From an uncultured Pseudomonadota bacterium (GTDB lineage: Bacteria; Pseudomonadota; Gammaproteobacteria; Natronospirales; REEB76), in the NCBI GenBank assembly GCA_963817285.1, contig CAWFOE010000029.1, positions 6,209 to 70,208 of the forward strand: a stretch of 64,000 nt of DNA, written 5' to 3'. This document shows positions 48,709-48,898 of the stretch, one piece after another. The number at the start of each line of letters is the position of its first letter. Within the stretch, counting starts at the first letter, position 1. The notes beneath the pieces are model-generated. The model was given only the letters and a program-made list of their open reading frames with translations. It did not search any database and had not been told where the DNA came from. The translations under genes and the position numbers were made by a program.

Positions 48709-48898
48709 GTCGAGAGGGATTCGAACCCTCGATATCAAAGGCAGGTTCGACAAAATCGCCGGGGTTCGGCGCATGCGCCGAACGGGTTTGCCAGGAATGG
48801 CAAACCCCGGGTTCTTAGCGAGGCACGGAAAGCCGAGCTTAGAACGACTTGGACCGCCGAAGGCGGGCCCGACAACCCGGCGTAATCCCTCTCTCTCC
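48709..48898. repeat. inverted T-arm copy plus a direct tRNA-Ser 3' end split in the T-loop by a 133-bp hairpin insert
   Basis: gtcgagagggattcgaaccctcgat is the reverse complement of the T-arm. It is followed by ggttcga | caaaatcgccgggg...cggcgt | aatccctctctctcc. Confidence 0.7.

Follow-up and report, generated by a model that had tools for sequence, protein, structure and literature searches.

Repeat units behind three tRNA genes

We analyzed 64,000 nucleotides (nt) of DNA from an uncultured Pseudomonadota bacterium (Gammaproteobacteria; Natronospirales; REEB76), positions 6,209 to 70,208 of contig CAWFOE010000029.1 in assembly GCA_963817285.1; this whole stretch is called the window below. 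ARAGORN identified three tRNA genes in the window, for Gln, Ser, and Arg. Behind each of the three, on the same strand and 73 to 84 nt away, lies a repeat unit in which a hairpin-rich insert stands inside a copy of the tRNA 3′ end. The units are of the kind known as RtT, or tyrT repeats, in Escherichia coli, and the canonical form of the insert, which we call the core, probably is, or was, a nonautonomous mobile DNA module.

The order of parts was the same behind all three tRNAs: a GC-rich hairpin with a run of T, an inverted copy of the T-arm and acceptor 3′ part, a few bases, GTTCGA, the insert (opening with CAAAATCGCC), AATCC, the 3′ strand of the T-stem, and the 3′ strand of the acceptor, often with CCA, after which comes another terminator-like hairpin. 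By eye, a terminator-like hairpin stands before each unit. The core consists of four hairpins, P3 to P6, and was scored with R1, a covariance model built from 40 cores. The features are as follows.

10340..10413 (+): intact tRNA-Gln(CTG), host of the first unit (ARAGORN; Rfam tRNA)
10422..10450 (+): GC-rich, terminator-like hairpin with T run, between tRNA-Gln and its unit (by eye)
10460..10481 (+): inverted tRNA-Gln 3′ part (TGGGGGACTAGGATGAGAACCC) with the RtT-type GGATGAGAAC motif (sequence, blastn)
10486..10491 (+): Gln left junction GTTCGA, the left half of the T-loop (sequence)
10492..10574 (+): Gln canonical core, P3 to P6 (CAAAATCGC...GGAGTA; R1, 67.9 bits)
10575..10592 (+): right half of the Gln T-loop, T-stem 3′ strand, and acceptor 3′ strand, a diverged copy (sequence)
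12144..12256 (+): partial second Gln unit, with hairpin Sc, a P3 3′ remnant, P4 to P6, and ACCCTAGCCCCCCAG (blastn versus Ser, 85%)
48568..48661 (+): intact tRNA-Ser(GCT) (ARAGORN)
48712..48734 (+): exact inverted copy of tRNA-Ser from the end of the variable loop through the T-arm to the acceptor 3′ start (blastn, 23/23 versus 48652-48630)
48745..48750 (+): Ser left junction GTTCGA (sequence)
48751..48884 (+): Ser insert, a core whose P3 loop (after CAAAATCGCCGGG) holds nested palindromes (blastn; R1, 12.5 bits)
48764..48846 (+): the nested palindromes Sa (48764-48783), Sb (48784-48807), and Sc (48809-48846) (blastn)
48885..48899 (+): right half of the Ser T-loop and copy of the tRNA-Ser 3′ strand (blastn, 15/15 versus 48643-48657)
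55384..55590 (+): tRNA-Arg 5′ fragment (acceptor 5′ strand, D-arm, GCGCTCGTAGCTCAGCTAGGTGA) and further hairpin modules (by eye)
55596..55672 (+): intact tRNA-Arg(ACG) (ARAGORN)
55713..55737 (+): Arg unit 1, inverted T-arm and acceptor 3′ part (blastn, 25/26 [96%] versus 55667-55642)
55753..55853 (+): Arg unit 1, GTTCGA, canonical core (55759-55836), then ATCCTCCGGGCGCGCCA (R1, 69.9 bits; 15/15 with the tRNA 3′ end)
55896..56097 (+): Arg unit 2, a diverged inverted piece, GGTTCGAATC, insert (55930-56085), then CCGGGCGCGCCA (blastn, 94% over 51 nt, reverse strand)
56143..56169 (+): Arg unit 3, an inverted tRNA-Arg piece only, after a third terminator-like hairpin (blastn, 95% versus 55667-55647)

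The 3′ piece of the unit matched the 3′ end of the adjacent tRNA at 15 of 15 positions for Ser and for Arg units 1 and 2 and was diverged for Gln, where the inverted piece (10460-10473) matched the tRNA (10409-10396) at 14 of 14 positions. The GGATGAGAAC motif of the Gln unit is also present in E. coli RtT. Tandem repetition varied: Arg has two units (unit 1 spans 55713-55853 as a whole) and a partial third, Ser has one, and Gln has one plus the partial second unit 1.6 kb away, which scored 19.4 bits with R1 over P5 and P6 and carries a copy of the tRNA-Gln 3′ end at 12245. Single-stranded DNA folds of the Ser unit (z = -6.6) and of Arg unit 2 (z = -8.3) were both closed by base pairing between the inverted piece and the 3′ piece.

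An earlier note on this DNA, made from the sequence, had proposed that the inserts form one dispersed family of hairpin modules, and in-window blastn confirmed the similarities on which it drew as far above chance. The Gln and Arg unit 1 inserts, described there as alignable, are homologous (10486-10525 versus 55753-55792, 95% over 40 nt, E = 6e-13) and share a single P3-to-P6 core by the covariance model. A 44-bp block of the Ser insert was indeed found inverted in Arg unit 2 with exactly 2 mismatches, within a longer match of 48757-48807 to the reverse complement of 56042-56092 (94% over 51 nt, E = 5.5e-17), and the module that follows it recurs near tRNA-Gln (48800-48847 versus 12144-12191, 85% over 48 nt, E = 1.2e-5). 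A further inverted and diverged match, placed at about 56010-56041, was weak: 17 of 21 positions agreed by eye at 56020-56041, and blastn returned none. The GTTCGACAAAATCGCYGGG junction pattern occurred 3 times in the window versus 0.04 expected. With E values down to 5.5e-17 within 64 kb, the possibility that the similarities were chance GC-rich words, which would have undone the proposal, did not hold. Junctions at TTCGA/A (a slash marks a junction here and below) were seen for Gln, Ser, and Arg unit 1 but not for Arg unit 2, whose insert is flanked by GTTCGAATC and CCGGGCGCGCCA.

The Ser and Arg unit 2 inserts differ from the canonical core through secondary palindromes. In the Ser insert, Sa, Sb, and Sc lie in the P3 loop and are followed by a remnant of the P3 3′ strand (ACTTGGAC), P4 (CCGCCGAAGGCGG), and truncated P5 and P6; the R1 score is only 12.5 bits because the core is disrupted in the P3 loop. 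Sa and Sb recur in Arg unit 2 at the insert's 3′ end, where both are reversed and their order is exchanged, and the halves of Sc stand reversed at both ends of the same insert, around further hairpins. Sc alone is found again at 12153-12190 and, in another genome (locus L172; loci outside the window carry L numbers), in the same spot, the P3 loop, of a tRNA-Glu unit. The nesting indicates that the core's own loops receive secondary palindromes, and these, unlike the core, occur in both orientations.

The partial second Gln unit sits at the far edge of a low-GC stretch (10600-14000, 50 to 52% versus about 63% GC) that begins directly after the first Gln unit and encodes a TonB_C protein and a Rap1a-type immunity protein, without an integrase. 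Since the first 1.6 kb of this islet is bounded by tRNA-Gln 3′ fragments (10575-10592 and 12240-12256), the repeat array seems to have taken in a small island. On its upstream side, intact tRNA-Arg adjoins the stretch 55384-55590, whose tRNA-Arg 5′ fragment is identical to the real gene at 16 of 18 positions and is followed by about 180 nt of hairpins, including relatives of the Ser-type palindromes (GGTTCGGAGCGGTAGCTCCGAAC, GGGCACCCAGGATGGGTGCCC); 55500-55532 matched 55949-55981 of Arg unit 2 in inverted orientation (91%, blastn). The stretch resembles D-loop-interrupted pseudo-copies in metagenomes.

A four-hairpin core of the RtT kind

The core is 70 to 90 nt long. P3 (CAAAATCGC-CGGGA-GCGATTTTG) starts at the first base of the element, P4 is variable, P5 is GCCC-GNA-GGGC, and P6 often stands on a tandem G.A and is capped by a CAGGAUG loop; the element ends in GAGTA. 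In an alignment of 65 units analyzed with RNAalifold, P3 was invariant, P6 was rich in two-sided changes, and the T-stem was kept across the insert and covaried with tRNA type. The earlier note had read the differences among window copies as stem-preserving, and this was borne out in 129 further copies aligned with R1. In these, 92% of cells were paired, all 23 pairs had two-sided changes, and 400 cells carried such changes versus 117 in shuffles, none of 500 shuffles reaching the observed value; since the alignment was fitted to the model, the counts lean toward the proposed structure. Pairing fell to 30 to 55% when the partners were slid. A family of hairpin modules with structure-preserving substitutions thus exists.

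Several units have other first hairpins (CAAATTTGA-CGGGA-TCAAATTTG, CAACCGAGCGAAGCGAGGTTG, or CCAGCGAGCGAAGCGAGCTGG) with the rest of the core unchanged (L172, 4985-5075; L171, 2180-2300; L146, 7740-7860; L230, reverse strand); hence, the P3 stem covaries between subfamilies. A GCGAAGC mini-hairpin is present in some of these P3-variant units.

The composition of the hairpins points to folding as single-stranded DNA rather than RNA. The stems are about 97% Watson-Crick, with 37 and 47 G-T pairs of about 1300 on the two strands, and GNA triloops closed by C-G dominate (GAA, 58; GCA, 53; GGA, 43). GNA triloops of the d(GCGAAGC) type form very stable DNA mini-hairpins, whereas RNA hairpins typically have GNRA or UNCG loops. 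That the loops read GNA, not TNC, on the sense strand implies that this is the folding strand.

The closest known relative is RtT RNA of E. coli, encoded by the 178-bp tyrT-distal repeats (gene rttR). RtT RNA is the processed product of one tyrT repeat unit, according to the available text of PMC3318445, citing Bosl and Kersten 1991; its mode of action has been described as unknown (bioRxiv 10.1101/2024.07.17.603846). Members are expressed next to Asn and Lys tRNA genes in Actinobacillus pleuropneumoniae (PMC4986893), and the RtT helices, including the one framing the tandem G.A, are supported by covariation (PMC8250186). The tyrT-tyrV-rttR locus of E. coli K-12 reads GGGGAAGGATGAGAAGCTTCGACCAAGGTTCGA / CTCGAGCGCCAGCGAGAG, AGCGTTGCCGCAGGCAACG, ACCCGAAGGGC, GAAGCGCGCAGCGCTGAGT / AATCCTTCCCCCACCACCA. 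Like the window units, RtT repeats adjoin or lie between tRNA genes on the same strand, are tandem, and end in a tRNA 3′ copy including CCA. The parts also follow in the same order. First comes the 5′ strand, complementary to the 3′ piece, then GGATGAGAAC and GGTTCGA; the opening hairpin and a variable one of the GNA type are next, and CCCGAAGGG, a hairpin based on a tandem G.A, and GAGTAATCC complete the unit.

The models matched reciprocally. The Rfam RtT model (RF00391; gathering threshold, 45 bits) scored the four E. coli units at 133 to 138 bits and exceeded its threshold on three CAAAATCGCC-hairpin units from other genomes (L235, 56.6 bits; L218, 46.1 and 45.2 bits). Window copies scored below it (Gln, 24.4 bits; Arg unit 1, 17 bits), so that RtT gave no match in the window at gathering level. 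R1 in turn aligned along its full length with each of the four E. coli units (27.5, 25.9, 23.2, and 14.7 bits). We concluded from the shared module order and the reciprocal matches that the window elements are divergent members of the RtT kind and not a new class. They differ from RtT in their first hairpin (CAAAATCGC/GCGATTTTG, versus CUCG...CGAG in E. coli) and P6 loop, in their hosts (Gln, Ser, and Arg), in the terminator-like hairpin before each unit, in the nested extra palindromes, and, for Ser and Arg, in having ATTCGAA where RtT has ATGAGAA. The window-type core also occurs outside tRNA contexts, for which we found no report for RtT.

A fainter likeness was found to AaHKsRNA22 (RF02902; gathering threshold, 39.8 bits), a small RNA from an RNA-seq screen of Aggregatibacter actinomycetemcomitans (available text of PMC5909427). 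The Gln core scored 27.1 bits (E = 0.002), below the threshold. The consensus of this RNA, ACAAAACGC...GCGUUUUGAAC, a hairpin, GGCCCCAAAGGGGCG, ..., GAGUAGUAAUC, has the same layout of P3, joining segment, P4, and P5 as the core, with a different right end, and its description, in the available text, mentions neither a tRNA link nor repeats. As to whether the family of the earlier note had already been described, it thus corresponds to the RtT/tyrT repeats and weakly resembles AaHKsRNA22; it is not a classical MITE (miniature inverted-repeat transposable element), and its membership in a REP (repetitive extragenic palindromic) class is not supported.

Genomic contexts and evidence for mobility

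We scanned genomes, one per species, with a 19-nt junction probe, for which about 8 chance matches were expected by our own estimate, and metagenomes with the P3 hairpin alone, leaving the flanks unconstrained. The genome scan yielded at least 120 loci, nearly all of them gammaproteobacterial among the matches listed (L121 to L200), which include Steroidobacteraceae, Lysobacterales, Rhodanobacteraceae, Rheinheimera, Chromatiales, and many metagenome-assembled genomes (MAGs). The metagenome scan also yielded at least 120 loci, for a total of at least 240, mostly gammaproteobacterial. Stretches shared by the window with loci L220 and L123 were 79 to 85% identical. With blastn, the Gln unit had no match in complete E. 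coli genomes or plasmids, and a 15-mer junction probe gave only chance matches in coding sequence among viral contigs. The Enterobacterales contigs L158 (a Klebsiella pneumoniae MAG) and L165 (Raoultella terrigena) carry the junction pattern, with no tRNA gene found in the stretch examined.

Two kinds of tRNA context recurred. At class A loci, an intact tRNA gene (Gln, Ser, Arg, Pro, Tyr, Lys, Val, Glu, Asp, or Leu) is followed 35 to 120 nt later by a window-like unit, often in tandem. At class B loci, of which there are about 20, a full-length tRNA gene is split in its T-loop and an intact gene for the same tRNA lies about 190 to 480 nt downstream; examples are tRNA-Pro at L204 (3906-4211), L228, L231, and L189, tRNA-Gln at L132, L208, L227, and L232, and tRNA-Ser at L141, L150, and L211. 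Degeneration of the acceptor 3′ end is frequent among interrupted copies, as at L204 and L141. In tRNA contexts, the core is always co-oriented with the tRNA. The two orientations that the earlier note had ascribed to the family therefore hold for the nested palindromes and not for the canonical core in these contexts. By eye, a terminator-like hairpin with a T run separates tRNA and unit at about half of the nonwindow loci.

The core also occurs well away from T-loops. Among the matches listed, only 32 of about 130 copies found with the P3 probe follow GTTCGAC; the remainder follow T-loop variants (GGTTCA), D-loops of class II tRNAs (GGTCGA, GGTTGA), or many unrelated sequences. By eye, nearly every left flank terminates in GA (about 80%) or CA, and nearly every right flank opens with A. 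Non-tRNA sites include one 75 nt downstream of a 5S rRNA gene and one beside a group II intron. Only a subset of copies clearly lies in loops of GC-rich host hairpins, such as GCGGCCCA/TGGGCCGC, and contiguous flank pairing around non-tRNA copies did not discriminate them from shuffles. Cores also join head to tail (GAGTA/CAAAATCG), and with R1 as many as three copies, in both orientations, were found within 700 bp of one another on individual contigs. At L340 (161-576) and L328 (2528-3217), three cores each alternate in orientation within 400 to 700 bp, an arrangement that recalls arrays of REP in bacterial interspersed mosaic elements (BIMEs).

Interrupted genes also indicate mobility. Copies of the core in an IS91-family transposase gene are as follows.

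L292, 3320-3400: core copy in the IS91-family transposase gene
L292, 11749-11829: core copy in the IS91-family transposase gene
L279, 3345-3425: core copy in the IS91-family transposase gene

At L292, a 71-nt core interrupts the gene; its deletion joins ...TTHVMF/EPLDF..., and the Pfam domain Y2_Tnp (IS91 family) then spans the junction. Two diverged homologues were hit at the same codon position, between F and E of HV(M/I)FEPLDF. A second small hairpin insertion lies a few codons downstream of the core at L292. Similarly, removal of 69 to 96 nt restores the tRNA genes of class B loci, with the junction at tRNA position about 57 to 60. Exact restoration of both a protein domain and tRNAs shows precise insertion without target duplication. 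Deletion of the core from D-loop copies restored no whole tRNA; these pseudo-copies carry further changes.

The earlier note had called the family a MITE/REP-like mobile element. Its mobile-like character stands, given the same core in unrelated contexts and the restoration of the IS91-family domain and of tRNAs by deletion; the class assignment is not supported, since the core has neither terminal inverted repeats nor target duplication (its ends are CAAAATCGC... and ...GAGTA) nor a GTAG head, and a cognate RAYT (REP-associated transposase) was not found in the loci searched. A classical MITE, by contrast, has both terminal inverted repeats and a target-site duplication. Several features are shared with REP/BIME-RAYT systems and IS200/IS605: short noncoding palindromes, hairpins at both ends, and no terminal repeats or duplication. 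Palindrome-associated IS200/IS605 elements likewise enter 3′ of a short specific sequence, in a fixed orientation and without duplication, and REP/BIME clusters, like the cores on some contigs, alternate in orientation. The GTAG head of REP sequences was not seen beside the core palindromes in our alignments, and the strong preference of the core for tRNA loops sets it apart from REP and IS200. The palindromic elements of Rickettsia also are small modules inside RNA genes and protein genes, without sequence relation to the core; because the 71-nt transposase copy is not a multiple of three, it disrupts the frame, unlike the in-frame peptide of the Rickettsia elements. Likenesses to hammerhead, integron attC, and the IS91 target site (GTTC) were considered and dropped, as the defining motifs did not fit.

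We propose the following account. Every unit holds a partial copy of the adjacent tRNA 3′ end, with its T-loop split by the core after TTCGA, at tRNA position about 58/59. The core enters precisely between A and A of YGA/A sites, mostly in exposed loops (T- and D-loops of tRNAs and other hairpin loops), and would move as sense-strand single-stranded DNA by means of an enzyme acting in trans, in the style of IS200/IS605 or REP-RAYT. We infer movement in this form because the core has no terminal repeats or target duplication, has hairpins at both ends, a fixed orientation, and DNA-type loops, and resembles its target at its right end. This last likeness (GAGTA versus YGA) means that head-to-tail copies can form. 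Only insertions in redundant tRNA copies would survive, so that they would accumulate in pseudo-copies beside an intact gene, and unequal recombination between the repeated 3′ ends could then build tandem arrays, as at Arg. Where transcribed, as in E. coli and Actinobacillus, such units yield RtT RNAs.

The inverted piece lies outside this account. For Ser and Arg, it copies the upstream tRNA and is not a co-evolved partner of the unit's own 3′ piece; the Ser piece includes the complement of variable-loop bases that are absent from the unit. Its loop would be expected to read ATTCGAA but is ATGAGAA in E. coli and across many genomes and tRNA types, a change that would set G.A mismatches across from the point of insertion. 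In their direct-inverted-direct order, the parts recall the tandem inversion duplications that arise through snap-back at palindromes and are known from work on duplications in Salmonella. By that analogy, our guess is that the inverted piece might have a snap-back origin.

Two genes for Y1_Tnp transposases (IS200-like, RAYT-like by motif scan) lie a few kilobases from cores, at L279 (1759-2271, +) and L292 (about 6280-6814, -). They give no evidence of a cognate enzyme, as their flanking repeats differ from the core; inverted repeats of its own, GTGACGGAGGGAT and ATCCCTCCGTCAC, flank the L279 gene. The truncated copies L210 and L212, checked for an autonomous version, adjoin ordinary genes.

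Some further features of the window are recorded here. At gathering level, the sole addition made by Rfam was a 6S (SsrS) RNA gene (25614-25799, -; 95.9 bits). An intergenic two-hairpin element at 29672-29741 (-), GAAAATCGCGGA...TCCGCGATTTTC followed by GCCTGAAAAGGTC-AAGGAA-GACCTTTTCAGGC, scored 19.7 bits on the core model (E about 0.004, a rough value) and may be a degenerate relative at a non-tRNA site or a chance match. The same 12-mer (AATCAGTTTCC region) occurs at 10325-10336, just upstream of tRNA-Gln, and at 56173-56184, just after the last Arg unit, and a complement-like AACTGATTT lies at about 12268, after the partial Gln unit. The third Arg terminator-like hairpin (56107-56134) has a 93% identical copy 4.8 kb away on the opposite strand (60890-60923).

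Alternative explanations and significance

Several observations weigh against a mobile core. A Pfam search beside the window units and in the low-GC islet found no integrase or transposase, and both Y1_Tnp genes named above are flanked by repeats other than the core. The ends of IS608-type elements differ from those of the core, having hairpins set back with a guide and spacer, whereas P3 abuts the left junction. Copies in the window genome are old and diverged; many compensatory changes separate copies that share a genome, so that there is no sign of recent transposition. P3 and the loop sequences are conserved across orders, and stable RNAs are made from RtT relatives (PMC4986893; Bosl and Kersten 1991, as cited in PMC3318445); an RNA or protein-binding function would fit both facts equally well. 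Simple insertion does not account for the near-obligate link of duplicated tRNA 3′ ends, inverted piece, and insert. Among 156 extra tRNA 3′-end copies near tRNA genes, 122 follow an insert, 3 follow an intact T-loop, and 31 are other cases, partly chance; duplication and insert thus go together, at loci that were chosen for carrying the element. More generally, since the loci were collected through the presence of the element, the context counts are biased.

Some of these points would suit a different reading, that the units are purely functional RtT-type small RNA genes, cotranscribed with the tRNA and processed, with the core as an RNA domain and the copies made by duplication and concerted evolution. 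E. coli makes RtT RNA as a stable product of processing, and Northern signals were obtained for RtT members beside the Asn and Lys tRNA genes of A. pleuropneumoniae (PMC3318445, PMC4986893). The covariation and the tandem G.A motif (PMC8250186), the tRNA-like CCA end kept in many units, the constant co-orientation of core and tRNA, and the conservation across orders are all expected of an RNA gene. We nevertheless judge this reading unlikely, because tRNA and unit are separated by a terminator-like hairpin in the window and in roughly half the loci elsewhere, G-U pairs are very scarce on either strand, and the triloops are of the DNA type. Moreover, the core interrupts a transposase frame and tRNA D-loops and occurs in both orientations on single contigs, as the nested palindromes do in the window, and the Ser and Arg inverted pieces match the upstream tRNA instead of the 3′ piece with which they would pair. 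A function for the core in a working tRNA, as a T-loop intron or tolerated expansion, would agree with its position after the TTCGA pentanucleotide of the T-loop motif and with the occurrence of interrupted genes of full length for tRNA-Pro, -Gln, -Ser, and -Arg; in other T-loop RNAs, insertions are tolerated at positions 59/60. However, an intact gene for the same tRNA lay no more than about 500 nt from each interrupted copy seen, acceptor 3′ ends are often degenerate, Rfam gave no match to a ribozyme or intron family, and the window units lack the 5′ two-thirds of the tRNA, which makes this explanation very improbable.

Repeated integration and loss of genomic islands at the tRNA T-loop, leaving attL/attR remnants with the hairpins as island arms, would explain why the duplicated tRNA 3′ ends start within the T-loop. 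One integrase class is said, by Williams in 2002, to cross over at just that site, and the low-GC islet of about 3.5 kb after the Gln unit, with its first 1.6 kb between tRNA-Gln fragments, looks like such an island. Yet there is no integrase in or beside the islet or the units, and crossover would not flank the core with the two halves of one T-loop. With cores also at non-tRNA sites, in D-loops, and in self-tandem, and with inverted tRNA pieces that integration would not be expected to leave, we regard island scars as decidedly improbable. As for chance resemblance among short GC-rich palindromes, the region is GC rich and full of terminator-like hairpins, but the blastn E values, the excess of junction patterns, and at least 240 external copies with the same module order reduce its probability almost to nothing.

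The mobile-module reading, that of RtT-type units whose core is or was nonautonomous mobile DNA, is therefore the one we carry forward. A bolder version, which we put forward tentatively and think has somewhat less than an even chance of being right, indeed rather a poor one, is that RtT repeats, a puzzle since the late 1970s, are the footprint of a widespread orphan single-stranded DNA element that homes to T-loop TTCGA/A and similar YGA/A loops and is coupled to direct and inverted duplication of tRNA 3′ ends by an undescribed enzyme or mechanism. In the literature, we found no description of a T-loop MITE or of the element's sequence; the breadth of the family, the precise T-loop junction, and the dispersal of the core outside tRNA contexts may be new.

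These results have a practical side for annotation, as the units fall below Rfam thresholds, give rise to false open reading frames, and invite confusion with small RNAs or integration scars. They bear on the evolution of tRNA gene copy number and on the hunt for a mobilizing enzyme, and they offer a testable account in which a hairpin module stands at a fixed T-loop position of spare tRNA copies. They also link the little-understood rttR/tyrT repeats of E. coli to a large family in many uncultured Gammaproteobacteria. If the bolder version were true, an orphan element would be building and reshaping tRNA gene arrays across the Gammaproteobacteria.

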